From the sequence record PZ445437.1: a stretch of DNA of 64,000 bases. One strand, 5' to 3'. The notes beneath the pieces were generated by a model, which saw nothing but the letters and a program-made list of their open reading frames with translations, did not search any database and had not been told where the DNA came from. The position numbers and the translations under genes are program-made. Shown one piece after another: positions 242 through 22,957 of the stretch (position 1 is the first letter of the stretch; each line of letters starts with the position of its first letter). This stretch comes from a phage.

Positions 242-978
242 TTCCACTCACCTTTATAGTCTTTTTTCACAATATGAGTTTCGCCAGTATTCCACCAATG
301 ATCAACCAAGTAAAAATGACGAGAATATACATGAAGACTTCCGACATTCCATATAATAGAACCTGCTTTATACTGACGAGTTGAATCGCCTGCATTCAAA
401 TCAGATACTAATTTATCTAATACGTATTTTTGCCATGCATAATCATTACGGAATCCGAAGACCACGTCATTTGAGCGCATGCTTACTACTGCATTGACTT
501 TCTTATCACGAATCAGGTACTGCACTGTATTAGTACACATGAAATCTGACATACCATCTTTATTGTAGTCAAATTGCATGGATGGACGAGTATAAATCAT
601 GATACCACGTCGAGAATCAGGATTTTGACCAAGTTCAGCTAAACACATATCATACTGGGCATAGTTATCTTCTGACCAAATAGCCCAACCATAATTCGAG
701 TTAATTTCGCCTTTAGAAGATGCTACTTGTTGCCAAATCTTTGGTGTTTCACCTGGAATATCTTTAACAAACAGACTTTGAGACTTGTACCATTCAAGTT
801 CACGCTGAATGTATTCATCATTAAGAGCGCCAAAAATAAACGGTTCATCTGCTACAAATGATGCGCCAATAATTTCAATAGTTTTAACACCGGTTTTATC
901 AACTACGAAATCTTTTTCTTTTAATGCAAGCCCCAAATGAAGACGGATTTCTTCAACTGTCATAGAGTCACTAATCAT
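238..978 (-). CDS. 42: dCMP hydroxymethylase
   Basis: 246 aa, same length and sequence as I recall for T4 gp42; position next to imm/43. Confidence 0.95.
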   Translation of the reverse strand: MISDSMTVEEIRLHLGLALKEKDFVVDKTGVKTIEIIGASFVADEPFIFGALNDEYIQRELEWYKSQSLFVKDIPGETPKIWQQVASSKGEINSNYGWAIWSEDNYAQYDMCLAELGQNPDSRRGIMIYTRPSMQFDYNKDGMSDFMCTNTVQYLIRDKKVNAVVSMRSNDVVFGFRNDYAWQKYVLDKLVSDLNAGDSTRQYKAGSIIWNVGSLHVYSRHFYLVDHWWNTGETHIVKKDYKGEWK

Positions 979-985
979 TTAAACC

Positions 986-1135
986 TCAATTGATACATTC
1001 ATATTTAACTTGTAACAGTAATAAACCCCAACCTAAAATAATAGTTGGAATCATAAGAGGAACCGTTACACTATAGTATATACTTATTATAATCATCAAG
1101 ATTAAAAGCAACACTGCTATAATTTTGCTTTTCAT
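986..1135 (-). CDS. Small hydrophobic peptide (49 aa)
   Basis: Hand-translated: ATG overlaps imm stop (ATGA), ends just before gene 42 RBS; MKSKIIAVLLLILMIII...; below ORF-track size cutoff. Confidence 0.35.
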   Translation of the reverse strand: MKSKIIAVLLLILMIIISIYYSVTVPLMIPTIILGWGLLLLQVKYECIN

Positions 1136-1383
1136 TCCTTCTCTCTGATGATAATTACCTGATTTGGTTGTGCAGACTTTTTAGTTTCACCCGCAATTGA
1201 CCAAATAAATGTAATAAACCAACCAATAATTGACCAGTTAAACAGTAAAGATGTGAAAAAGATTCCTACTGTCGATTTTGACCCACGCATCAAGGCGATA
1301 AACCATGGAAGCATGTATATAATAATAGCCAACACACCTGAAACTAAAACCATAAAAATTGAACCTGCTACTAAAGTTTCCAT
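1132..1383 (-). CDS. imm: Superinfection immunity membrane protein
   Basis: 83 aa, two hydrophobic segments, T4 Imm length and position between 42 and 43. Confidence 0.9.
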   Translation of the reverse strand: METLVAGSIFMVLVSGVLAIIIYMLPWFIALMRGSKSTVGIFFTSLLFNWSIIGWFITFIWSIAGETKKSAQPNQVIIIREKE

Positions 1384-1390
1384 GTTTTCC

Positions 1391-1771
1391 TCACTTAGTC
1401 AAATTTTTTACACATGAATTATAAGAATTCACTACATACTCCATCGGAGCATTTTTACCAGTACGCCATTGGTAATTATTAGCCCAATTAGCCCAAATTT
1501 CGGCGCAGTAGTTTTCAATTTTTTCTTCGCGTGTAATTACATCCGAATTACGATATGCTTGAGCAGATTCATCTGGACGAATAGCTTCGTCAAAATTCGC
1601 CTGCATTTGTTCTACTGTTTGCTTTGGAGCTTCTTTATAACACTTGACATTAGGATTATAAAACTTGCTTGAACAGTTTACAATTTTTCCTACATCAGAC
1701 TGATTTACTACCGGTCCTTGAGCCACACAACCAGTAAGACCTAATGCAATAACCAAAATAGCGATTTTCAT
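1391..1771 (-). CDS. Predicted lipoprotein (126 aa)
   Basis: N-terminal signal peptide with lipobox LTGC; multiple Cys; imm.1 position. Confidence 0.6.
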   Translation of the reverse strand: MKIAILVIALGLTGCVAQGPVVNQSDVGKIVNCSSKFYNPNVKCYKEAPKQTVEQMQANFDEAIRPDESAQAYRNSDVITREEKIENYCAEIWANWANNYQWRTGKNAPMEYVVNSYNSCVKNLTK

Positions 1772-1783
1772 AATAATTTCCTC

Positions 1784-2035
1784 TTAAAACTTAACAAATA
1801 ACTTTAAAGCATCTTCAGTTTTAATTCCTTTTCTTACACCCATAACAGAAATTGGCTGTGACTGAAATTTTCCTTTACCATTATAAATTTCTAATCCAGT
1901 AACCATTCCATTTTGTTCTATAATACCGTAAGTGTTACCTTCATTTTCAAATTCTTTAACTTTAAAGAGTTTATTAGCTTTTTCTGCGTTAACAACTTTT
2001 AAATTTTGAATAAAATTAGTTTGAATATTTTTCAT
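1784..2035 (-). CDS. Hypothetical protein (83 aa)
   Basis: ATG preceded by GGAGG RBS and early promoter. Confidence 0.5.
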   Translation of the reverse strand: MKNIQTNFIQNLKVVNAEKANKLFKVKEFENEGNTYGIIEQNGMVTGLEIYNGKGKFQSQPISVMGVRKGIKTEDALKLFVKF

Positions 2036-2063
2036 TTTGTGTTCCTCCGTAGTTGATAGTTGT

Positions 2064-2092
2064 ATAGTACCATGGAAGAACAGTCTTGTAAA
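2064..2092 (-). promoter_or_regulatory. T4 early-class promoter (-35 TTTACA, 17-nt spacer, -10 TACTAT)
   Basis: Minus-strand GTTTACA..17 nt..TACTAT; one of a dispersed family of near-identical elements. Confidence 0.5.
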
Positions 2093-2180
2093 CAGTTTTG
2101 TGAAATTTTTTTAGGGAATTCTAAAGGTCCAGAATCATCTGTTTTTCATAAGTATAGATTTATATTACTTGTATGAAAAA

Positions 2181-2196
2181 GGGACCCGGAGGTCCC
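2181..2196 (-). terminator. Intrinsic terminator after gene 43
   Basis: GGGACC-UCCG-GGUCCC hairpin followed by U-run on minus strand, 14 nt after gene 43 stop. Confidence 0.6.
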
Positions 2197-2209
2197 TAGA
2201 TTTATTCTA

Positions 2210-4906
2210 TCAGCCAAACAGGAAGTCTAACGAAGCTTTTTCTTCATAGTCCATACCAGCCGATTCACACATGCCTGCAAGCGGTTTAACAAACGATTTT
2301 TGGAACAAAGTTGAGTAGTCAATCCAAGACAGTACGTCAGAACGAATTTCTTTTGGAAGTTCTGTGCCCGACGGCCAAGCAATGCACTTTTCACCAAATG
2401 GATTTCCTTCACGCAATGGAAGAACCATTACTTTATTTCCATCCAAAATTGGAGCTACACCTAAACCGCTAACAGCTCGACGATAAGTTAGCACCCCACG
2501 AATATGGAACGGGCATTTAAATCCTGGCCAACCTTTATCATCATATTTCGCTATATCGTTCGCAGTTTTTACTTCAGCAATAACTTTATAGTCAAGTTGA
2601 CGATATTCTTTCTCGAAGTTCTTGTAATATTCTTGGACAGACTCTTCACCTTCCTGAAGAATACGACGAATACTTTCTTCGAGAGCTTCTTGGACCGCTT
2701 TAGGCGTTGAACTCTGCTGAGTTTCCATACCCATGATTTTTAGATGCGGTTCAGCAAATCGCTTATCTTCCATATCATAAACGTTCAGAGCATAACGCTT
2801 TTTCGCTTTCCAAAATCCACCGACGCCCTTTGAACCAAGTGGAGGGCAAGAAATAGCTTCACGGTCCATATGCATCAGATGCTCGCGGTTATTCATATAA
2901 TCACATAACTCACGATATGCAACATCAATCATAGGTTCCATCTTTTTCTTACCGAACTGATTCATGAATTCAACTAAATCGTTCTGCTCTTTGAATCGGT
3001 CAAGACCAACTTTTTCAATAACTTTATCTACACAAACATATACCGAATCAGTATCACCTGCTGCAATGAAATCTTCGCCATTAGTTCCGCATACTTTATT
3101 CAGATATTCATTAATTTTACGAGCAATCCACTGAATACCAACTTGGCCGAAAATTGTGATAGCAGTAGCATTTCGCAAATCATAGTAACGGAAATGAATA
3201 TTACCAAGAGCACCATAAAGACTGTTAATAAGAATTTTACGGTTCAGCTGATTTGTGTTAGCAAGTGTAGCTGCTTTTTCACATTCTTCAATCAAACTAT
3301 TGAGAACAGATTCAGTATAATTCGATAGTTCATTTAAGAAATCATCACTGAACTTAACATATCGTTCAACTTCTGGTTTAGTTGAACAAGACCCTGCGCC
3401 TTTCATAATAATCTTTTTAATAGCTTCGGCATTCATTTCTTCAGCGAACATTTTCTTTTTCCAATCTTTACGCTGGAAAAATACTTTAGCGATTTCCTTT
3501 GGAATGATACCTTCTTGATGCTTATCATACATCCATCCATTCGGAGAACAAGAATATTCATCACTTGGTTTAGGAGCTGTTCCTGCGATATATTCATGAA
3601 TTGGATGAACTTTAAACTGACCACGAATAGTCTCAGGACTAATGTTAACCTGACGAATAATGCTCGGATACAGAGACGTCAAGTCAAAACTCATAATATA
3701 TCGACGAGCAATTGGTTTAGGTTCAAACACAAATGCACCCGGAAAACTCTGTTTAACATGCGAACCTTGTTGAGGAATAACCTTATGTTCACCTTTCAAT
3801 GAGTTAAAAATAATGGCATCCCAGGTTTTAATAGGACTCATTACACCGGAAAAAGGCATTTTAGCGTAATAAGACATACTTAAAACTAGATCGATAAACC
3901 CGCGAATTTTATCAATTGCTTGAACTGATTCTACGTCAATGATGTTATAACTAATGTATCGTTGATGATTAGTCTCACGAAGTTTATTAATAGGACCGTC
4001 GTATGGTAATTTACCTTTTTTGGTTTCATGTTGAGCAACTGATTCCAAAGAGAATGACGGCAAATTAGTAAAAGCAAATTTCTTGTACAAATCTAAATAA
4101 TCAAGAATAGATACACCATCAATAGAATAAATTTCTTTGCTGCCGTACATATTTTGAATTAGTTTAGATTTTACTCGACCGATTGGAGAGAAGCGTTTCA
4201 TACTACGTTCACCGAGAACCATTTTAACGCGATTCATGATATACGGAACGTCAAATCCCTCAATATTCCAACCAGTAAAAATAGCAGGTCGTTTCTGTTC
4301 CCAGAGATTGATATATTCCATGAGCATATCACGCTCATTATCGAATGGCATATAAATTACTCGGTCAAGAATTTCTTGAGGAACTTCATCACCACCTTCA
4401 CAGTCAAGCTTAGCAGCTAACTTTGCATCCCATTTTGATACTGAACCATACATTGAATTCAAAAGGTCGAAAACATAAAAACGATCATCAATTGAATCGT
4501 AATGAGTGATAGCATCAATTTCATATTCAGCTTTCATTGGGTCAGGAAATTTATCACCAGTAACCTCAATGTCACAGTTAGCTACACGAACAAATTTTCG
4601 GTCATAAACAATTTCTGAACCGTATGTATCACTGATATAAGCGAGTTTAAAATCGTTCATACCGAGAGCTTCGAGACCGATGTCTTCCATTCGTTTCATC
4701 CAATCTCGAGCATCTTTCATTGATGGAAATTTTTGAGGAGCGCAGTTTTTACCATAGATGTCTTTGTACTTTGACTCTTCCTTACAATGCCTAAACATAG
4801 TTGGAAGATATTCTACTTCACGAGTACGTTCCTTTCCATTTTCATCAATATAACGTTCAACAATATTATTTCCGACTGTTTCAATAGAGATATAAAATTC
4901 TTTCAT
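2210..4906 (-). CDS. 43: DNA polymerase (family B, with 3'-5' exonuclease)
   Basis: 898 aa, identical length to T4 gp43; exo and pol motifs (e.g. YGGA.., DTDS). Confidence 0.97.
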   Translation of the reverse strand: MKEFYISIETVGNNIVERYIDENGKERTREVEYLPTMFRHCKEESKYKDIYGKNCAPQKFPSMKDARDWMKRMEDIGLEALGMNDFKLAYISDTYGSEIVYDRKFVRVANCDIEVTGDKFPDPMKAEYEIDAITHYDSIDDRFYVFDLLNSMYGSVSKWDAKLAAKLDCEGGDEVPQEILDRVIYMPFDNERDMLMEYINLWEQKRPAIFTGWNIEGFDVPYIMNRVKMVLGERSMKRFSPIGRVKSKLIQNMYGSKEIYSIDGVSILDYLDLYKKFAFTNLPSFSLESVAQHETKKGKLPYDGPINKLRETNHQRYISYNIIDVESVQAIDKIRGFIDLVLSMSYYAKMPFSGVMSPIKTWDAIIFNSLKGEHKVIPQQGSHVKQSFPGAFVFEPKPIARRYIMSFDLTSLYPSIIRQVNISPETIRGQFKVHPIHEYIAGTAPKPSDEYSCSPNGWMYDKHQEGIIPKEIAKVFFQRKDWKKKMFAEEMNAEAIKKIIMKGAGSCSTKPEVERYVKFSDDFLNELSNYTESVLNSLIEECEKAATLANTNQLNRKILINSLYGALGNIHFRYYDLRNATAITIFGQVGIQWIARKINEYLNKVCGTNGEDFIAAGDTDSVYVCVDKVIEKVGLDRFKEQNDLVEFMNQFGKKKMEPMIDVAYRELCDYMNNREHLMHMDREAISCPPLGSKGVGGFWKAKKRYALNVYDMEDKRFAEPHLKIMGMETQQSSTPKAVQEALEESIRRILQEGEESVQEYYKNFEKEYRQLDYKVIAEVKTANDIAKYDDKGWPGFKCPFHIRGVLTYRRAVSGLGVAPILDGNKVMVLPLREGNPFGEKCIAWPSGTELPKEIRSDVLSWIDYSTLFQKSFVKPLAGMCESAGMDYEEKASLDFLFG

Positions 4907-4924
4907 AGATATTCCTTAGTTTAT

Positions 4925-5234: not shown

Positions 5235-5603
5235 TTAATTACCAATCGTATATTTAGGAACGAGTTTCCATTCATGTTTTTGTTTAAAAGAAATAACTCG
5301 GAAGTTATTAGTTAAATCTTTCATAAAAGTTCTTTGACCAGGAACGATTTCAATCAGTCCCCAATCTTCTAATAGCCATGCAATCGAATCACGACGAACT
5401 TCATCTTCTTCTGTCATTTCAACTTGACGGCCATCCATACGAAGCATTTCTTTAAAATGAACGATATAGTATAGTCCTTTTTTCTGAAGAATATGACAGG
5501 ACTGATACAGAACTTTATCTTTATTATTAGCAATTCCCATACGAGTCAAAGTTTCTTTTACTTTCAGAAAATCTTCAGGTTTTTTAAGAGTAATTTCAAT
5601 CAT
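5235..5603 (-). CDS. regA: Translational repressor RegA
   Basis: 122 aa, T4 RegA length and position downstream of 62. Confidence 0.9.
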   Translation of the reverse strand: MIEITLKKPEDFLKVKETLTRMGIANNKDKVLYQSCHILQKKGLYYIVHFKEMLRMDGRQVEMTEEDEVRRDSIAWLLEDWGLIEIVPGQRTFMKDLTNNFRVISFKQKHEWKLVPKYTIGN

Positions 5604-5604
5604 T

Positions 5605-6168
5605 TTACCATTCCAATGCTAGTTTTTTGAGTTGTTTCTGTTCTTTTACGTTCTTAGTCACTTCTTTCAAAAAATCATCCGTGACTAATCCTTTAAGTTC
5701 TTTTAATACTAAAGGTAGTTTTCCATTTTTAGTAAGAATTGATTTATAGTTAATTGCATCATTTGTATTAACTTGATACCGCTTAGCAAGTAACTTAATA
5801 ATCAATACTTCGGTGGAATCTTCAACTAGTTTTGCCCATTTACCATATCTTTTACCACGAGGAACTGCAGCCATTAGATAATTAAAATGAGCTTCATCAC
5901 TTAAGCCTGATCCAATTAAATTCATAGCATATACAGCTGGCATGCACTCTGGAAATTGTGATAATGCATTTTCAACCATGAATTTTGAATAATCTTTTTG
6001 AGCAATAGAGCATTTAGTTTTATTATTAATAGCTCCAATTATTTCAAAAAATTCATTTTCAGCTTTTTCTTTAAAAGAATCAGCAGCAGATTGGACAGCT
6101 GTCCAATCTTTTGAATACCAAGCAACTTGATGCTCGTTTAATTGAATATCATCTTCAAATAAGCTCAT
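5605..6168 (-). CDS. 62: Clamp loader small subunit
   Basis: 187 aa, T4 gp62 length; translationally coupled to 44. Confidence 0.9.
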
Positions 6169-6169
6169 A

Positions 6170-7129
6170 TCACTTCCACTGCATTTCGCATGCTAATTGA
6201 ATGAAAAGATAAGCTAGATGCAATTCAGTATTAGCTGCAATACCATGATACTGATTATTTTCGCCGACAATTTCGTACATACGAATAATACTCTGTGGAG
6301 TTACACGTGAATAGATTTCTTCGGCAAGTTTACCTACGAACCACGAATAATCGGCTGCATATTTTGGTGCTAAAGCTCTGAGTTGTTTAACATCTTTATT
6401 TTTGAGAGACTCAAGAACATCATCAATAGCACCACGATCATTAGTAACCAGTGATAAAATACCAGCATCCAAAACACCTTTAGATGAATAACTATCGAGC
6501 TCGCCAATAGTTTTACGAAAATCAGGAAAATTCTTTTTAACCAAAGCTGCTACAACTTTCATATCAGCTATAGCAATACCTTCATGTTTACAGATTTCGG
6601 TCAACCGACGAATCATCTGCTTCATCATTTCAATTTTATCTTCATCGGTCGGTTGACCGAATGTGATAACTCGGCAGCGTGACTGAAGCGGTTTAATAAT
6701 ACCATCAATATTGTTAGCAGTAATAATAATACTACAGTTTGAGCTGTAAGCTTCCATAAAGGAACGAAGATGTCGCTGAGATTCTGCTAAACCTGAACGG
6801 TCAAATTCATCAATAACGATTACTTTTTGACGACCATCAAATGAAGCGGCGCTGGCAAAATTAGTCAAAGGACCACGAACGAAATCAATTTTACAATCTG
6901 ACCCATTCACAAACATCATATCAGCATTTACATCATGACACAATGCTTTTGCTACAGTTGTTTTACCTGTTCCTGGAGAAGGAGAATGAAGAATAATATG
7001 TGGAATCTTACCTTTACTTGTAATAGATTTAAAGGTTTCTTTATCAAAGGCGGGAAGAATACATTCATCGATAGTAGATGGACGATATTTCTGTTCAAGA
7101 ATGTGTTCTTTTTCATTTACGGTAATCAT
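6170..7129 (-). CDS. 44: Clamp loader ATPase subunit
   Basis: AAA+ Walker A GTGKT and SRC motif; ATG at 7129 gives 319 aa as in T4 (ORF-track start 7144 is an upstream TTG). Confidence 0.9.
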
Positions 7130-7163
7130 AATTTCCTCATTCAAGTTTTAGTGTAAATTATAA

Positions 7164-7177
7164 AGGGCCGAAGCCCT
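7164..7177 (-). terminator. Intrinsic terminator-like hairpin after gene 45
   Basis: AGGGC-UUCG-GCCCU hairpin 3 nt after gene 45 stop. Confidence 0.45.
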
Positions 7178-7180
7178 CTA

Positions 7181-7867
7181 TTAAAAATCGTGGGTAGAAT
7201 CAGCTTCAAGAGCTACTACATAATTCGCATGTTCACCTTCAAATTTAGCAGCGCCTTGTTTACCTTTTGCCCAGAGCAGAAGTTTATAATTTCCTGGTTG
7301 CATTTTCATATTTGCCATATTGATAATGAAATTAAATGTGTTTTCACCATCATAATCACCAAGAGTCAAAGAATATTTAACACGGGTCAGAGCAGAATCT
7401 TCTACTTTATTAAAACCGTTAATTACGATTTTACCTTCTTTTACTGTGATAGCAATTGTATCAATTTGCAGACCACGAGATACACGCAACAGTTGTTGAA
7501 GGTCTTCAGCTTTAATTTCAGTAACAACAGATGCTACCGGGAATGGAATTGGTTTATTAGGAGCAACTACTGTGCTCGGATCGGCTGCTGGCCAAAAAAT
7601 TGTTGAGCGGGCATCAGCAATTTTAATATTTCCATCTTCTGACTGGGAAATTTCTGCATCATCATTAACTAGAGACAGAATGCCGAGAAAACCGTTCAAA
7701 TCGTAAATTGCTACATCAAAATCAATAACGTCAGAAATATTTGCTTCCGCGTAAGTTGTACCATTAACTGCGCGAGTCATAATAAATTGACCGGATTTAA
7801 GCATAATGCCAGAGTTAATAGTAGCGAAATTTTTAAGCAGAGCAGTAGTATCTTTAGACAGTTTCAT
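7181..7867 (-). CDS. 45: Sliding clamp
   Basis: 228 aa, T4 gp45 length and position. Confidence 0.93.
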   Translation of the reverse strand: MKLSKDTTALLKNFATINSGIMLKSGQFIMTRAVNGTTYAEANISDVIDFDVAIYDLNGFLGILSLVNDDAEISQSEDGNIKIADARSTIFWPAADPSTVVAPNKPIPFPVASVVTEIKAEDLQQLLRVSRGLQIDTIAITVKEGKIVINGFNKVEDSALTRVKYSLTLGDYDGENTFNFIINMANMKMQPGNYKLLLWAKGKQGAAKFEGEHANYVVALEADSTHDF

Positions 7868-7922
7868 GTAATTTCCTTCAATTCAAATGGGATTTAATTT
7901 TATAACTAATTAAATAAAGCAA

Positions 7923-8312
7923 TTAACGATTAAAATCAGCTGCGATTGTTTCGGCAACAATTTGAGCAGCAACAATCAGACGTTCATCTGCATTACCGCA
8001 ATAATCATCTTCAAGGCGTTCACCGCATGAAGTCATAATAAATTTAGCACCGGCGTTTAGGGATTCTGTAGTATGTTTGCGCATTAGTTCAATCCATTTA
8101 TTACTTACTTCACGATCGATAGCTTCATAATACGCATGACGAGCAGGTGCAGATTTAATTTTGTTCTGAATAACTTCCATCGCGTTATCAGAAAGAGACA
8201 AAACCCACGCTCGACGAATTTTATTTTGGTTTTGTGGATTTGATTCAGAACGCACATGTTTTGGCTGAATATCTTTTACATCAACAGTATAATTCACAGT
8301 AATTTTAGTCAT
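7923..8312 (-). CDS. rpbA: RNA polymerase-binding protein RpbA
   Basis: 129 aa, T4 RpbA length and position between 45 and 46. Confidence 0.7.
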
Positions 8313-8321
8313 AATACACCT

Positions 8322-8510
8322 TTAGTCATAATAATCAGTAACAGTCCAAGCTTCATTTCTATTGGACATTATTTTTGTATATTCTGCTTTAAATGCATTC
8401 TTAAGCATAGATTCAGTAACTATATGCTCTTCATTAGAAAAATTATTTCTCAGAATATATCGTTTTATTTCAGGAATAGTTAATAGATGCTGTCCAGTTG
8501 AATATTCCAT
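8322..8510 (-). CDS. Hypothetical protein (62 aa), 45.2-like
   Basis: Small ORF in conserved position. Confidence 0.4.
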   Translation of the reverse strand: MEYSTGQHLLTIPEIKRYILRNNFSNEEHIVTESMLKNAFKAEYTKIMSNRNEAWTVTDYYD

Positions 8511-17417: not shown

Positions 17418-17700
17418 GAGAAATAATTCCTTGGTAAGCCCAATAAGGAGGATTAACAGAATCCTCACCAGAGTTTTCTTCAGGAAAATAAACCTGGATA
17501 ACGAAGCCGGATTCATCAAAGGTAAAATAAACCGTAGGCAGTTCACCTAACAAATCGGCACGAGCGTTGATTTCTTCGAGGTCTTGTTCACGTCCAGCCC
17601 AGAAGCTTGGGTTCAGACTACATTCATAGAAATAATAGTCATTACCGAACATATCAAAACCATTCCAACTCTCTACTACATACCGCTCAAAACTAATCAT
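17389..17700 (-). CDS. Hypothetical protein (103 aa)
   Basis: ORF; acidic. Confidence 0.45.
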   Translation of the reverse strand: MISFERYVVESWNGFDMFGNDYYFYECSLNPSFWAGREQDLEEINARADLLGELPTVYFTFDESGFVIQVYFPEENSGEDSVNPPYWAYQGIISRGTKLELKE

Positions 17701-17702
17701 AA

Positions 17703-17918
17703 TTAATCCTTTTTATCAAGAACCGCATTCAGCTTGTTAGTAATTTTATCCAGACGCTCATTGAACTCACTAGAAGATAAGCCCTTTTCTGGAGAAATTA
17801 AACTAATCACGAAAAATATAGCAATAAAAGGAATAAGGAAAATAGCTCCAACTGCCATAAACAGAAAGAATGTTACAGTTGTAAGAAAATCAGCTAAACC
17901 TTTACGAAATTTATACAT
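17703..17918 (-). CDS. Hypothetical membrane protein (71 aa)
   Basis: One TM segment. Confidence 0.45.
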   Translation of the reverse strand: MYKFRKGLADFLTTVTFFLFMAVGAIFLIPFIAIFFVISLISPEKGLSSSEFNERLDKITNKLNAVLDKKD

Positions 17919-18033
17919 ATTTTACCCTTAATTGATTAACCAAGCATTGATAAGCACTAAACTATATTGCGAATAAAATTCTGGACCAAAATGAAAAATC
18001 ATATCATTTATAGTATCCATAATGTAATTCAAT

Positions 18034-18504
18034 TTAATCATGTGTCCACACCCCATCGGTATTTGACCAAAGTCGCTGATTATCTGATCCTCGCCACAGC
18101 TTTTTAGTCGGAAGATTTTTCTCATACTTCCCATCAATAATAACATCAACATATTTAAGCATTTCTAGTTGTTTAATATCTTCAAACTTATATCCTGTCC
18201 ACAACCAAATGCTTTTATTGGGATAAAGATTTTTAATAGTTTGAACCACAGAGTGAATCACGTCTCTGTTATCAGGATAAAGAGGGTCACCTCCGGTTAT
18301 AGTCAATCCTTCTATATAATCATTATTCAAACATTCAATTAATTGTTCTAGTGTTTCACCAGTGAATGGAACACCATTTCTAGCATTCCATGTTGATTTA
18401 TTATAACACCCTTCGCATTTATGCAAACAACCTGTAACGAAAAGAACTGTCCTGCATCCAGGACCATTAACAAAGCAGCACGGGTATATTCTGTCATAAT
18501 TCAT
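18034..18504 (-). CDS. nrdG: Anaerobic ribonucleotide reductase activating protein (radical SAM)
   Basis: 156 aa (T4 NrdG length); CxxxCxxC cluster motif. Confidence 0.9.
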   Translation of the reverse strand: MNYDRIYPCCFVNGPGCRTVLFVTGCLHKCEGCYNKSTWNARNGVPFTGETLEQLIECLNNDYIEGLTITGGDPLYPDNRDVIHSVVQTIKNLYPNKSIWLWTGYKFEDIKQLEMLKYVDVIIDGKYEKNLPTKKLWRGSDNQRLWSNTDGVWTHD

Positions 18505-19333
18505 TTATATATTTCCAATTATAGCCTTCAACACTTTTACGTTCGCCATTTAAACATTTTAAAATATTTCCTTTGCTAGAAATATTAAAATATTTTGCTG
18601 CGTCTGGTATATAATTAAATGTTTTTAAAAGAACACCATCTTTATATGCGCCAAATAAATTAAGAGTATATTTTTCTCGAAGACGCTGATGTTTCCTTTT
18701 CATAACCTCAGGATTTGCATACGCCAACTTCAATGAATTTCTGTGTTTTTCTTTTACTTCAGGTTTTTGCATTGCTAACTTAGTTAGCCTGGAAATTTTA
18801 TTTCTAACTTCGTCAGTTTTCATTGCATTTGACAAATTTAATAAAGTTTTATTTCTAACTTCAGGTTTTTGCATTGCTAGCTTAGTTAGTTCTCTATGTC
18901 TTTTTCTAAAATCGTCATCCTTCCATATATTTTTCGATAATTTTGACATAGAGCGGTGAAATAATTCCTTTTCACTGGAATACAATTTAAAAATTTCATC
19001 CAATTCATCCGCATTAAATCTATCGGTATTCGAGTTTATCATTCTATGAAAGGCATAACACATTTTACTATTGCTTGTTTTAGCTAAATAGTAATGAGCT
19101 AACGCATGGTCATAATATGACAAATTAACAATATTCCATTTATCTGTTTTATATTCAGGAAATATAGATTTGGGAAGCACGTGATGTGCTTCCGTTTTTC
19201 CTTTTATTTTAGGATTATTATAATTTTTTGTTATCAAATCAACATATGACAATAGTAAATCATTATTTTCTTCAAATATTAAAGATAATTTATCATTCAC
19301 AAAATCGCAAGGATAAAATCTATCATAATTCAT
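18494..19333 (-). mobile_element. Freestanding HNH homing endonuclease gene (279 aa, Mob-like)
   Basis: HNH motif EAHHVLPKS..N..YDHALAHYY; tandem NUMOD-like repeats (TKLAMQKPEV x2); ATG overlaps nrdD stop; first 13 codons resemble nrdG. Confidence 0.8.
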
Positions 19334-21147
19334 TGGTGTTTAACCCTATGCATGATTTCTTTATTTTTACCGAGATTAAATCCGCGTTCGTTCGGATTTC
19401 CCAAATAACCACATGTTCTTCTTATTGTGTTCATCTTTTTAGGATCAGTTTCTCCACAAATAGAACAAACAAATCCGTTTTCAGTAGGAGTCATTTCATG
19501 GGTACTTCCACATGTAAAACATTTATCTACTGGCATATTAACACCAAAATAATCTAAATGTTGTGCAGCATAATCCCATACGGCCTCAAGACCCTTTAAG
19601 TTATTTTTCATATCAGGAAGTTCAACATAAGAAATGTGACCACCTGTCGCAATGAAATGATATGGCGCTTCACGAGAAATCTTTTCAAACGGAGTAATAT
19701 TTTCTTCTACTGAAACGTGGAAACTGTTAGTGTACCAGCCTTTATCGGTAACATCTTTTACACTTCCATATTTTTCTGTATCAAGTTTACAGAAGCGATA
19801 ACAAAGGTTTTCAGCAGGAGTAGAATACAAACTAAAAGCAAACCCAGTTCTTTCAGTCCACTGTTTAAGACGAGCATTCATTTTAGTTAAAATTTCTCGT
19901 CCAATATCACGACCTACAAGAATATTCAATTCGTGAATACCAATGTATCCTAGAGACACTGAACTTCTGCCATTTTTAAATAACTCAATTATATCGTCAT
20001 CAGGTTTAAGACGAACCCCGAATGCACCTTCTTGGTAAAGAATAGGAGCAACAGTTGCTTTAACTCCTTTTAAGGAACTAATTCTACACATCAAAGCTTC
20101 AAAACACAAATCCATTCGCTCATTGAACAATTCGATAAATTTCTGTTCATTGAACTGTGTTCCAATATAAGAATCTAATGCGATACGAGGAAGATTCAGT
20201 GTTACAACACCAAGATTATTACGTCCATCAAGAATTTCATTACCAGTCGAATCTTTCCATACGCTCAAGAAACTACGGCAACCCATCGGAGAAACAGGAA
20301 CAGATGAACCAGTGATAGCTTTATTGTTCTTAGCTGAAATAATATCAGGATACATCCTTTTGCTTGCGCACTCTAGAGCAAGCTGTTTAATATCATAGTT
20401 CGGATCGTCTTTATAAAGATTAACACCTTCTTCAACAAACATAACAAGCTTAGGGAAAATAGGAGTTATCCCATCACGACCAAGACCTTTAATACGATTT
20501 TTCAGAATTGCTTTCTGAATCATTCGTTCAGTCCAGTCAGTTCCCGTACCAAATGTAATTGTTACAAAAGGCGTTTGTCCGTTTGAACTAAAGAGAGTAT
20601 TTACTTCATATTCATAAGCTTGGAATGCATCGTATACATCTTTTTCTGTTTTAGATTGAGCATAATTCAGTGCATCGGCGATTTGCCATTTTTCTGCATC
20701 CTCAATATGTTTTGCATAGGTGCGTTTAACATAAGGAGAAAGTACTTTATCTACATTAGCAAAAGTCGTTCCGCCGTATTGATGGGAAGCAACCTGTGCA
20801 GTAATTTGTGCCATAATTGCAGTAGCAACTCCAATTGATTTAGGAGTTTCAATCTGCGCATTACCAAGCTTAAATCCGTTCTCAAGCATTCCTTTTAAAT
20901 CTACTAAACAGCAATTAGTAAAAGGCAATGATATACTGTAATCTAAATCATGAAAATGAATTAATCCAACATTATGGGCATTTACAATATGACTTGGAAG
21001 AATACGACAAGCGATATGTTTAGAAACAATACCGGCCATTAAATCTCTTTTTGTTGGAAAGACGCGAGAATCTTTGTTGGCGTTTTCTGTATTTAATTCT
21101 TTATCTTTATTTGAAATAAAATTTAAAACATCTTTTTCTAAAGACAT
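19330..21147 (-). CDS. nrdD: Anaerobic ribonucleoside-triphosphate reductase (glycyl radical enzyme), uninterrupted
   Basis: 605-aa continuous ORF (T4 NrdD spliced length); C-terminal glycyl radical region and Cys-rich zinc site. Confidence 0.95.
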   Translation of the reverse strand: MSLEKDVLNFISNKDKELNTENANKDSRVFPTKRDLMAGIVSKHIACRILPSHIVNAHNVGLIHFHDLDYSISLPFTNCCLVDLKGMLENGFKLGNAQIETPKSIGVATAIMAQITAQVASHQYGGTTFANVDKVLSPYVKRTYAKHIEDAEKWQIADALNYAQSKTEKDVYDAFQAYEYEVNTLFSSNGQTPFVTITFGTGTDWTERMIQKAILKNRIKGLGRDGITPIFPKLVMFVEEGVNLYKDDPNYDIKQLALECASKRMYPDIISAKNNKAITGSSVPVSPMGCRSFLSVWKDSTGNEILDGRNNLGVVTLNLPRIALDSYIGTQFNEQKFIELFNERMDLCFEALMCRISSLKGVKATVAPILYQEGAFGVRLKPDDDIIELFKNGRSSVSLGYIGIHELNILVGRDIGREILTKMNARLKQWTERTGFAFSLYSTPAENLCYRFCKLDTEKYGSVKDVTDKGWYTNSFHVSVEENITPFEKISREAPYHFIATGGHISYVELPDMKNNLKGLEAVWDYAAQHLDYFGVNMPVDKCFTCGSTHEMTPTENGFVCSICGETDPKKMNTIRRTCGYLGNPNERGFNLGKNKEIMHRVKHQ

Positions 21148-21959
21148 AATTCTAATTTATCCTTTTGAAATTCTTCGTCTAAATATGGGTTCCAACCCAT
21201 TTTAAACCTTTTGATGAAATTATCAATTCTAAATTTCGGTAAGTTTAAATCCGCAAAAATAGATGATTTACTTTTAAAATCTGGACTTAAATAATCATAT
21301 AAAATTTCTGCGTATTTTAACCATAATATACAAGTACCAGATTTAATTGCTCTCGGAGTTTTCCAAGGTTTTACACCATACATCGGATTTCCGCTTCCTT
21401 TATGCCTGATAGAAGATGAAATTCCAATTTTAATTTTAGCTTCCTTTGTATGCGAAAATCCACGATGTGGATTTTCTTTCCAGTATTTTTTAGAAGCTTC
21501 TGATATTTTCTTTCTGGCTAAATTAGTATGATGCTTTCCATAAAATCCATGATTTTTGCCTTTATTACGATTTCTTTTAATCATGGTTATTGATTGCTTT
21601 TCTCTAGTTTCTTTAGAAGGAGAAATACCATATGTCGTAAATTTGCCATCAGCATATGCTAAATTAAAATACTCTTTATTCCATACATCTTTTTCTATAT
21701 TCTTTTGAAATTCAGCTTCAATGCTAGTTATTTGTTCATCTCCGACTAATTGAAAATATAATATTTCAACTTTCGGCGTTTCTTTCAATAAGGCTTTTTG
21801 AAATTCGGAAGATGACGAAGACGAATAATAAAATTTACCATTTTTATCAATAATATTCGTTCCATCAAAAGTGCAATTGGTTTTACTTCCAATGTAATAA
21901 TATGGTGGGGTTTTAGCATTAATTCTATTAATAAATGATAGTTTATATACTACATTCAT
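21138..21959 (-). mobile_element. Freestanding GIY-YIG (Seg-type) homing endonuclease gene, 273 aa
   Basis: VYKLSF..(x9)..YYIGS GIY-YIG motif; GKNHGFYGKHH and GSGNPMYG NUMOD-like repeats; paralogous to 11689..12312; ATGA overlap with gene 49 stop. Confidence 0.6.
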
Positions 21960-22429
21960 TTTAAACTCTTTCTAAGCTGCTTCTTAAATGAAGCTATTAA
22001 TTGTGTTTTAGTGTCAGATTCATTATATTCAAATCCTCTTTGAAGCATCTCAGCCATCATTTCCTCTTTTCCTAAACGAGAAAATTCCTTTGATTTATCT
22101 CCAACGAAGTTAGGGTGAATATTATTTTGGGTGTAATCGGATTTTAAATAAGTAAGTAAATTTTCTAACCATTCAAGATAATCAACTCCTTGTCCCTTTA
22201 AGCCAGAACGATTAAATTTATGCTTCATTTGACCTTCTGCGGCATTGCAGAGATTACAAAGCAATCCACGTACCTTTCCTGCTTTTGGTCCATTTAATTC
22301 ATGGTCATGGTCGAGGTGATTAGCTTGAACATCAGGATTTAGTTCTCGTTGGCAAATTAAGCATTTACCATTTTGTGCATCATAAAATTTCTGTTTTTCT
22401 TCTTTATATAATTTGCCAGTCAATAACAT
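21956..22429 (-). CDS. 49: Endonuclease VII (Holliday junction resolvase)
   Basis: 157 aa (T4 endo VII length); zinc/His box CLIC...HLDHDHELNG. Confidence 0.9.
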   Translation of the reverse strand: MLLTGKLYKEEKQKFYDAQNGKCLICQRELNPDVQANHLDHDHELNGPKAGKVRGLLCNLCNAAEGQMKHKFNRSGLKGQGVDYLEWLENLLTYLKSDYTQNNIHPNFVGDKSKEFSRLGKEEMMAEMLQRGFEYNESDTKTQLIASFKKQLRKSLK

Positions 22430-22471
22430 AATAAAACCCTTACCTTAAATAGATAAGGGTATTTATTATTT

Positions 22472-22957
22472 TCAAGTATTGTAAAACATTTGATTCAATC
22501 GCTTATATTGCCGAATCTTTTGGTCAGAAAAAGAAATTTGGGTTTCAAGCCATTCAATATATTCTGCCGCAGCTTGCATCAAATTTCCTTCATAGCCATC
22601 GTTATTTTCTTGTGCAGCTAATTTAGCTAATGCGTATGGAATACGTTCACCTTGAAAATCGGCTTTAGGCTTCTGAACAACTTGATTAGTTCTCTCTACA
22701 ACTTCTTCAATTTCGCCATTTTCTACTGATTCAGTATTCCACAAGCACCAATACGTAATTGGCTTATCGTAGATGTTAATAATCTTTCCGTCGGAAAGTT
22801 CAATTTCAACAATTCCAGTATCAGGTTCTATATCATCTTCACATTCTTTTGCAAGTTCACGAACTTTAAAGACAGTACCTGCGCTAAGTTCCGGCCAGTA
22901 ATTACATAGCCCTGTATCAGCACGATTAATTCTAAACCACTTATCTACTGTAATCAT
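22472..22957 (-). CDS. pin: Protease inhibitor Pin-like protein
   Basis: ATG at 22957 gives 161 aa (T4 Pin length); position upstream of 49. Confidence 0.6.
   Translation of the reverse strand: MITVDKWFRINRADTGLCNYWPELSAGTVFKVRELAKECEDDIEPDTGIVEIELSDGKIINIYDKPITYWCLWNTESVENGEIEEVVERTNQVVQKPKADFQGERIPYALAKLAAQENNDGYEGNLMQAAAEYIEWLETQISFSDQKIRQYKRLNQMFYNT

Follow-up and report, generated by a model that had tools for sequence, protein, structure and literature searches.

How does a phage endonuclease gene come to begin with almost the same 13 residues as the gene behind it, and which of the two starts is the original? The question is raised by a 64,000-nucleotide (nt) stretch of phage DNA (sequence record PZ445437.1; the whole stretch is hereafter the window), in which a complete open reading frame (ORF) for a 279-amino-acid (aa) HNH-type endonuclease, which we call PST-type mobC, stands where nrdD (anaerobic ribonucleotide reductase large subunit) runs into nrdG (the activase of NrdD). 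A reading of the sequence alone, referred to as the sequence-only reading, had placed this gene between nrdD and nrdG and had proposed that its insertion duplicated the 5′ end of nrdG, borrowing the translational coupling of the two host genes. Our comparison with related phages indicates that the ORF is probably part of an 829-base-pair (bp) free-standing HNH homing-endonuclease cassette lodged inside the nrdG coding sequence after nt 40, just 5′ of the codons for the conserved GPGCR (FVNGPGCR) motif, and built as a “5′-end replacement” element. This design would free the cassette from the need for an intron or intein: the endonuclease frame is fused to the resident nrdG start and hence inherits the nrdG initiation site and its ATGA coupling to nrdD, and a second, allelic version of nrdG nt 1–40 at the 3′ end of the cassette rebuilds a complete nrdG. 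The surrounding DNA is that of a T4-like phage of the genus Tequatrovirus, the 1.7 kb at the locus being 99.6% identical to Escherichia phage Paracelsus and 98.7% identical to Yersinia phage PST, whose annotation at this point reads “mobC: homing endonuclease”.

Two nrdG starts and the point of insertion

The junctions at either end of the endonuclease gene are as the sequence-only reading described them. The ATG of the HNH ORF shares an ATGA with the TGA stop of nrdD (19330..19333), and its own stop (NEL-TGA, 18494..18496) falls within nrdG, giving an 11-nt overlap (18494..18504) in which the endonuclease stop codon follows the nrdG ATG at a distance of 8 nt. The N-termini encoded by the two genes (MNYDRFYPCDFVN for the HNH ORF, MNYDRIYPCCFVN for nrdG) agree at 11 of 13 residues; counted from the ATG, 31 of 41 nt are identical, in keeping with the ~76% first reported, and the sequences 5′ of the two ATGs are unrelated. 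A repeat finder returns the pair at 18465-18505 and 19294-19334 (78%, spacing 829 nt), and a 32/41 match would arise by chance somewhere in the 1-kb region with a probability of ~1e-4.

Phages that lack the insert identify the resident start. In these genomes nrdD and nrdG are directly adjacent and overlap by ATGA (as in AugustSocin), the uninterrupted junction being found in 567 records. The insert-less nrdG opens ATGAATTA(C/T)GATAGATTTTATCC(C/T)TG(T/C)GATTTTGTGAATGG, encoding MNYDRFYPCDFVNG, and it is the start of the window’s endonuclease ORF, not that of the window’s nrdG, which this sequence matches: the copy at the head of the endonuclease ORF (left copy) agrees with AugustSocin nrdG at 37/41 positions and with the window’s own nrdG at 31/41. 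A 110-nt query spanning the breakpoint, in which 30 nt of nrdD precede the 40-nt copy and 40 endonuclease-specific nt follow it, was matched over its full length in 21/21 Tequatrovirus carriers, so that the similarity recurs at the DNA level in other isolates; of the 601 records matched, every insert-less phage among the matches listed gave 100% identity over exactly nt 1–70. Because the match of insert-less junctions stops at nrdG nt 40, the insertion point maps after that nucleotide. Relative to AugustSocin the insert comprises 829 bp, namely 789 nt of endonuclease-specific sequence and a spare nrdG 5′ end (MNYDRIYPCC). The endonuclease N-terminus is hence of nrdG origin and sits at the nrdD/nrdG ATGA coupling site, as had been supposed; the gene itself lies inside nrdG rather than between the two genes, and its first 13 codons, instead of copying nrdG, are the resident nrdG start left in place (a 70/70-nt match that ends at nt 40).

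Klebsiella phages (Jiaodavirus), which carry the same gene in the same place at 85% nucleotide identity, inform on the polarity of the insertion. The insert-less Klebsiella phage KP13MC5-5 has an nrdG that starts MNFDRIYPSDFVNG; in the carrier Roth04 the endonuclease start matches this KP13MC5-5 nrdG start at 39/41 nt, and nrdG starts MNYDRIYPCCFVNG, of the same MNYDRIYPCC type as in the window. The replacement starts (right copies) of the window and Roth04 agree at 35/41 positions, a divergence equal to that of the rest of the element, and agree with resident alleles at only 30–31/41; among the best 40 of 115 Klebsiella records matched, the replacement allele is present at 95% identity or more only in 11 endonuclease carriers. 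The left copy is hence the one that tracks each genus’s resident allele, and the right copy travels with the element. The proposed duplication of the nrdG 5′ end is thus superseded, the window’s present nrdG start being the imported copy.

The endonuclease protein

The 279-aa product matches PHROG 655 (“homing endonuclease”) over residues 1–221 (5e-37) and PHROG 12434 (“HNH endonuclease”, 6.6e-15). In a nine-sequence family alignment (the window protein, seven database homologues and T4 MobC), H50, H51, N67, H76 and H80 are invariant, as in the HNH pattern, and an AlphaFold model places a strand–strand–helix arrangement over residues 47–84 (E47-51, E68-72, H73-84) with a local predicted local distance difference test score (pLDDT) of ~87–91. 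The Pfam HNH model PF01844 is matched by 2/9 of the aligned sequences (best E 3e-6). The sole Pfam matches of the window protein lie at its C-terminus (PF22083, 2.4e-4; PF07453, 5.8e-3), both below the curated cut-off; PF22083 is matched by 5/9 family members, with a best value of 1.9e-7. Direct sequence search of solved structures gave no meaningful match for the window protein, and NCBIfam gave no match for it, T4 MobC weakly matching the IscB HNH region. The motif and the PHROG 655 match, together with the patchy distribution set out below, uphold the identification of an inserted free-standing HNH homing-endonuclease gene made in the sequence-only reading.

Five tandem 17-aa units occupy the C-terminal half, where the DNA contains a 42-nt direct repeat (18746-18787 and 18848-18889, 88% identical, spacing 102 nt; period 51 with 2.7 copies at 18756-18889 in Tandem Repeats Finder). 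The tandem repeat that had been noticed here is real; its description as NUMOD-like is not sustained, as Pfam NUMOD3 has no match to the 17-aa units, which probably form a helical DNA-contacting linker. A natural 242-aa variant (P0003) is without exactly two of the units (34 aa), as would be expected if the 42-nt direct repeats had recombined with each other.

The N-termini of homologues at other loci are unrelated; the best paralogue (P0005, 37% identity) aligns only from residue 29, and the 13 nrdG-type residues are therefore no part of the family core; a further homologue (P0007, 33% identical), in an unrelated neighbourhood without nrdDG, serves only as a negative control for the N-terminus. 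An in-frame TAA stands three codons 5′ of the ATG, which leaves the captured nrdG start as the only conserved initiation codon before the HNH motif. The ratio of nonsynonymous to synonymous substitution rates (dN/dS) between Escherichia- and Klebsiella-phage copies is 0.08 at a dS of 0.89, hence the endonuclease protein is maintained by purifying selection. From these sequence comparisons we consider it likely that the protein is active in homing, with a cut near nrdG nt 40 and spread through break repair.

Spread of the cassette and competing explanations

A census of the slot, in which carriers were counted as full-length nucleotide matches (at least 80% coverage and at least 85% identity), gave 31 carriers of the window gene, 32 records with T4-type mobC, about 72 (71–73) with the GIY-YIG gene segH and 567 empty junctions. 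The cassette is 97–100% identical among carriers (85% for the Jiaodavirus copies), and it is present or absent among close relatives with a junction exact to the base, the behavior of a free-standing homing-endonuclease gene. The same cassette is also found on differing flanking backgrounds, which denotes horizontal spread. Compared with AugustSocin, the window has 0 differences over the final 430 nt of nrdD or over nrdG nt 58–471, and all differences in nrdG (15/15) fall within nt 9–57, confining the imported DNA to the insert plus at most 17 nt; the PST cassette, 100% identical to that of the window over the 781 nt compared, sits on another nrdG background (a T6/U5-like patch, nt 90–270). 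Such patchiness and such short flanks would be the footprint expected of homing, or of recombination with very short co-converted flanks. An Rfam intron search of 17500-22500 at E ≤ 1 had no match, with no ribozyme found, and the arrangement differs from that of a group I intron or intein in that a stop codon of its own closes the endonuclease ORF and nrdG forms a complete ORF apart from it.

The proposed route of spread is as follows. The endonuclease would cut or nick insert-less nrdG near nt 40, and the break would be repaired from a carrier genome during mixed infection. The left 3′ end, terminating at the break, would pair with the donor’s left copy, with the recipient’s own 40 nt kept; gap filling would then copy the endonuclease body and the replacement nrdG start, and the right end would pair in nrdG beyond nt 41. 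This repair route would account for a left copy that tracks the resident, a right copy that tracks the element, and the short flanks. Once the cassette is in place, it is plausible that the endonuclease borrows the nrdD–nrdG translational coupling, as the sequence-only reading suggested, and NrdG would probably be translated by re-initiation after the endonuclease ORF, given the endonuclease stop 8 nt downstream of the nrdG ATG and the lack of a strong Shine–Dalgarno sequence. The D10C change in the replacement copy may lower re-cutting.

More tentatively, and with more doubt than conviction, we raise the wider idea of intron-free homing by phage HNH endonucleases into a conserved coding core, achieved by fusion to the host start codon and provision of a spare, sequence-shifted 5′ end, with consequences for coupling, retention and excision. 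If this were true, the endonuclease would gain the translational coupling of the host gene; nrdG expression would depend on translating the endonuclease, producing a retention or “addiction” effect; and the two 40-bp repeats would permit scarless excision, leaving a possibly cut-resistant MNYDRIYPCC allele. Scarless excision, if it occurs, would explain why MNYDRIYPCC is found with two unrelated endonucleases and in the rare endonuclease-less phages U5 and ESh24.

The MNYDRIYPCC nrdG 5′ allele is present in 80 records within Tequatrovirus, nearly all of which adjoin either this endonuclease gene or the unrelated segH (T6, RB3, ACG-C40, SYGD1); the segH-linked allele is up to 75/75 nt identical to that of the window. 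The change common to both genera is at codon 10, where GAT/GAC (Asp) becomes TGC (Cys), 10–12 nt 5′ of the insertion point. The allele could be a cut-resistant form, a co-conversion marker of successive occupants of the slot, or an excision remnant generated via the 40-bp repeats. The insertion point coincides exactly with a perfect inverted repeat of 6 bp (GTCCTG-GATG-CAGGAC, 18449..18464, minus strand, nrdG nt 41–56), behind which comes a T-rich run. Pairing is weaker in the common allele (GCCCTG-GATG-CAGGGT); the C>T and G>A substitutions of the window complement each other, and the pairing is not kept in U5 and ESh24.

Two direct copies of ~40 nt that flank element-specific DNA superficially resemble a target-site duplication, and a fresh insertion between nrdD and nrdG might have duplicated the resident 5′ end and left the copies to diverge in place. 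The copies, however, differ at 10/41 positions in a cassette that is 97–100% identical among carriers, and divergence in place would not yield a left copy that is the resident and a right copy that is the element’s: the left copy shares its full sequence with local insert-less alleles, whereas the right copy is MNYDRIYPCC in two genera with differing residents, and so of a foreign type in the Klebsiella phages. We regard such a duplication as improbable, and judge no more favorably the reverse polarity, by which a 40-nt leader and the endonuclease body would have inserted exactly between the nrdD stop and the start codon of an nrdG that was already of the MNYDRIYPCC type. Tequatroviruses with this allele and no endonuclease do exist (U5, ESh24), and for Tequatrovirus taken by itself the two accounts are formally equivalent; in Klebsiella phages, nevertheless, the leader equals the allele resident there (39/41), MNYDRIYPCC at 95% or above occurs in no endonuclease-less Klebsiella phage among the best 40 of the 115 Klebsiella records, T4-type mobC shows the same pattern, and the window backbone is AugustSocin-like on both sides of the cassette while the allele of AugustSocin itself is the other one.

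Many phage HNH endonucleases begin M-N-Y-x-x-I-Y, and Y7 of T4 MobC aligns with a family-invariant tyrosine, so that part of the T4-type similarity may be native; for the window gene, a chance or convergent resemblance is refuted by the 70/70-nt match to insert-less junctions and its sharp breakpoint, and we give it practically no credence in view also of the ~1e-4 for the internal repeat alone and of homologues elsewhere without this N-terminus. An unlikely but more serious alternative is that a formerly mobile gene no longer homes and is retained for phage exclusion, or because nrdG expression depends on it. Strong purifying selection fits any protein-level function, the only upstream context of nrdG is now the endonuclease 3′ end, and PMC2988022 records no activity for T4 MobC; against retention alone stand the patchy distribution (31 carriers versus 567 uninterrupted junctions), near-identical cassettes on different nrdG backgrounds and in two genera, and T4-type mobC genes 99–100% identical between Escherichia and Klebsiella phages, which together argue for recent horizontal movement.

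Several points nonetheless weigh against our preferred reading, that of an active 5′-end replacement element. None of the Pfam HNH models matches the window protein at E ≤ 1, and fold searches with its AlphaFold model (mean pLDDT 65) retrieved no HNH structure. The short imported tracts could stem from later recombination instead of a nearby cut, and some T-even free-standing endonucleases cut far from their own genes. U5 and ESh24 are the only endonuclease-less MNYDRIYPCC phages seen; their existence and the presence of the allele beside segH make its origin within Tequatrovirus ambiguous and an “immune” role speculative, and SegH and Hef are said to cut carrier DNA too. As regards coupling, RNA folds at both start codons gave no convincing structure sequestering a ribosome-binding site (z −0.9, +2.3). 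For T4 MobC, the activity is listed as “not determined” and the target as unknown (PMC2988022).

Other occupants of the slot, related systems and neighboring genes

Free-standing mob and seg genes in the nrdD–nrdG slot are textbook knowledge for T4, whose mobC is the HNH gene of the slot in the annotation of Miller et al. (2003) and in Edgell, Gibb and Belfort (2010; PMC2988022). Orthology of PST-type “mobC” with T4 MobC was considered and rejected, BLASTP against NP_049689 giving 38% identity over 60/279 residues; no T4 record is among the 31 full-length nucleotide matches to the window gene, and the 32 records of T4-type mobC (99% identity or more) form a group apart, three Klebsiella phages included. 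The two genes share the slot, strand, PHROG 655, an ATGA start at nrdD and a ...GYxWKYxxEL-TGA end 11 nt inside nrdG (T4 mobC, 210 aa, starts MNYDRIY and ends ...GYTWKYKDEL-TGA), and both are fused to resident nrdG codons and carry their own nrdG 5′ end. T4 mobC differs from the window gene in encoding 210 rather than 279 aa, in its fusion point (7 codons, ~nt 20, against 13 codons, nt 40), in being without the five 17-aa repeats and in having a longer imported nrdG tract (at least 113 nt in Wolf_ER13). In the Klebsiella phages Wolf_ER13 and Shark_ER15 (878..1510 in each; coordinates quoted for relatives follow their own L-record numbering, L002–L014, not that of the window) T4-type mobC begins ATGAATTTCGACAGAATCTAT, coding MNFDRIY, which are the resident Klebsiella-phage nrdG codons, and the nrdG 5′ end that follows is T4-type.

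Read from these alignments, each of the two HNH genes of the slot is joined in frame to the resident nrdG start (~nt 20 for T4 mobC, nt 40 for the window gene) and is followed by a replacement start, which would predict a cut no more than a few tens of bases away from nrdG nt 20–40. The predicted cut region, the FVNGPGCR-coding sequence, would provide a specific, testable target for the uncharacterized mobC genes. The 99–100% identity of T4-type mobC between T4 and Jiaodavirus denotes a very recent cross-genus transfer.

Further mosaicism was seen around T4-type mobC. The nrdG 5′ end of Shark_ER15 is of MNYDRIYPCC type at nt 18–36 and T4-type thereafter, and T4 nrdG (4447..4917) is Klebsiella-phage-like, not window/AugustSocin-like, over nt ~96–290 (alignment columns ~1288–1480), with a Tequatrovirus-like 3′ part; the latter looks like a co-conversion or mosaic tract tied to T4-type mobC. 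Annotation of the locus is correspondingly uneven: pipelines call the window-type gene “mobC” though it is distinct from T4 mobC, and the nrdG start is mis-called in some such genomes, including Wolf_ER13 (annotated 84 nt too long, 418..972) and ACG-C40. In the latter (1474..2675) a segH-like gene, annotated “SegD”, is truncated N-terminally and starts after the GIY-YIG motif, and nrdG is annotated from an internal TTG with the full window-type nrdG 5′ end present upstream; this is probably a decaying endonuclease gene together with an annotation error.

Sandegren, Nord and Sjoberg are said to have described SegH, a GIY-YIG homing endonuclease, as replacing mobC in T6, RB3 and others, and its activity and homing have reportedly been shown by experiment. 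SegH resembles the window element in its position at the same nrdD–nrdG junction (71–73 records) and in the MNYDRIYPCC nrdG allele of most carriers among the matches listed; it differs in nuclease family, in lying exactly between the genes with its stop in an ATGA with nrdG and no nrdG codons captured, and in coming with a recoded nrdD 3′ end. The segH gene (276 aa; 1898..2728 in Pu-Krd-SF2 and CE1, 674..1504 in T6) starts ATGCATAGG, 8 nt inside the recoded nrdD end, which reads ...EMVKRVKHA* in segH carriers versus ...EIMHRVKHQ*. The 9-mer ATGCATAGG equals the normal nrdD codons M-H-R, and segH may represent the mirror image, with its start captured from the end of nrdD.

Insertion of HNH mob-type genes into coding sequences without an intron or intein has precedents. 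Aeromonas phage Aeh1 mobE splits nrdA into two genes, as reportedly described by Friedrich et al. (2007), and T4 mobA with gene 60/39 requires ribosomal bypassing (bioRxiv 10.1101/2022.08.31.505936). In these cases, as here, the interrupted gene serves nucleotide metabolism or replication and its function is preserved through sequence brought by the element; unlike the two polypeptides of Aeh1 or the bypassing of mobA, nrdG remains a single ORF, because the element lies close to its 5′ end and supplies that end anew. A partial parallel comes from fungal mitochondria, where the ORFs of introns are joined to the exon that precedes them and N-terminal duplications of host genes can result from intron movement (PMC8393795). 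The likeness lies in the in-frame fusion, which gives the endonuclease host expression signals, and in the foreign partial copy that leaves a duplicated gene end; unlike the fungal group I introns, the phage cassette has no ribozyme and occupies a bacteriophage locus of two translationally overlapped genes.

The I-HmuI type of HNH enzyme has an N-terminal HNH, a helical linker and a C-terminal helix-turn-helix, I-HmuI itself being an intron-encoded nickase. The window protein has a comparable order of N-terminal HNH core, repeated helical linker and C-terminal I-HmuI_NUMOD-like/NUMOD1 module (sub-cut-off matches); unlike I-HmuI, its gene is not intron-borne, and it has no significant sequence or fold match to any solved structure. 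A literature search, which did not cover Sandegren et al. 2005, found no description of a phage endonuclease fused to a host start codon and bringing a replacement 5′ end. The gene type and the slot (mobC, segH between nrdD and nrdG) have long been known; the mode of insertion is, as far as we found, apparently undescribed in phages, and would constitute a third way, beside introns and inteins, for a selfish endonuclease to sit without damage in the coding sequence of an essential-pathway gene.

On the minus strand of the window the gene order is gene 49, a GIY-YIG-type ORF, nrdD, the 279-aa HNH ORF and nrdG, with coordinates as tabulated.

Features of the nrdD–nrdG region in window coordinates
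Feature	Position	Strand	Basis
gene 49	21956..22429	-	Minus-strand gene order
GIY-YIG-type ORF, 273 aa	21138..21959	-	PHROG 7504 2.4e-34; NUMOD3
nrdD (anaerobic ribonucleotide reductase large subunit), intronless, 605 aa	19330..21147	-	Pfam NRDD 5e-171
Complete 279-aa HNH-type endonuclease ORF (“PST-type mobC”)	18494..19333	-	PHROG 655 5e-37; HNH motif; dN/dS 0.08
Left copy, resident nrdG nt 1–40 (13 codons + 1 nt, MNYDRFYPCDFVN), HNH ORF start	19294..19333	-	70/70 with insert-less junctions
Element-specific endonuclease body, 789 nt, missing from insert-less genomes	18505..19293	-	829-bp insert relative to AugustSocin
HNH core, residues 47–84 (EAHHVLP...WNIVNL...DHALAHYYLA)	19082..19195	-	Invariant columns and predicted strand–strand–helix
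Five tandem 17-aa units, residues 137–221 (M-x-x-P-E-V-R-x-K...L-A)	18671..18925	-	Repeat finders
C-terminal NUMOD1/I-HmuI-NUMOD-like putative DNA-binding module, residues 235–272 (...GYNWKY)	18518..18631	-	Sub-cut-off Pfam
Right copy, element-borne replacement nrdG nt 1–40 (MNYDRIYPCCFVN), working nrdG start	18465..18504	-	35/41 with Roth04 counterpart
nrdG nt 41–57, last insert-linked variant positions (GGT..ACA vs GGC..GTC)	18448..18464	-	Comparison with AugustSocin
nrdG (radical-SAM activase of NrdD), 156 aa, intact	18034..18504	-	Fer4_12 9e-49

The GIY-YIG-type ORF, a second endonuclease gene, separates gene 49 from nrdD, two genes that in AugustSocin and T4 share an ATGA. Its own start forms an ATGA with gene 49 and its last 10 nt lie within nrdD, of which no codons are captured beyond the ATGA. 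The first 20 codons of the window nrdD (21088..21147, MSLEKDVLNFISNKDKELNT) are strongly unlike those of AugustSocin and T4 (MTIEKEIEGLIHKTNKDLLN), which suggests an imported or recoded 5′ end here again. The gene is a single 605-aa ORF in the window and is interrupted by a group I intron with I-TevII in PST (2831..4701) and T4 (5536..8386), from which it follows that among close relatives the intron assorts independently of the endonuclease cassette downstream of it. In Jiaodavirus, a native 77-aa ORF lies between nrdD and nrdG with a 29-nt overlap with both (KP13MC5-5 1085..1318; Roth04 2736..2969), and is present with or without the endonuclease.

Sigma-70-like matches in a promoter and terminator scan were no commoner than in shuffled sequences, and the late promoter TATAAATA has no exact copy within the nrdD–nrdG region. 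A 7/8 match to this T4 late-promoter core, TATAAATG (18502..18509, minus strand), extends over the nrdG ATG and arises from the endonuclease 3′ end (...AAATATATAAATG).

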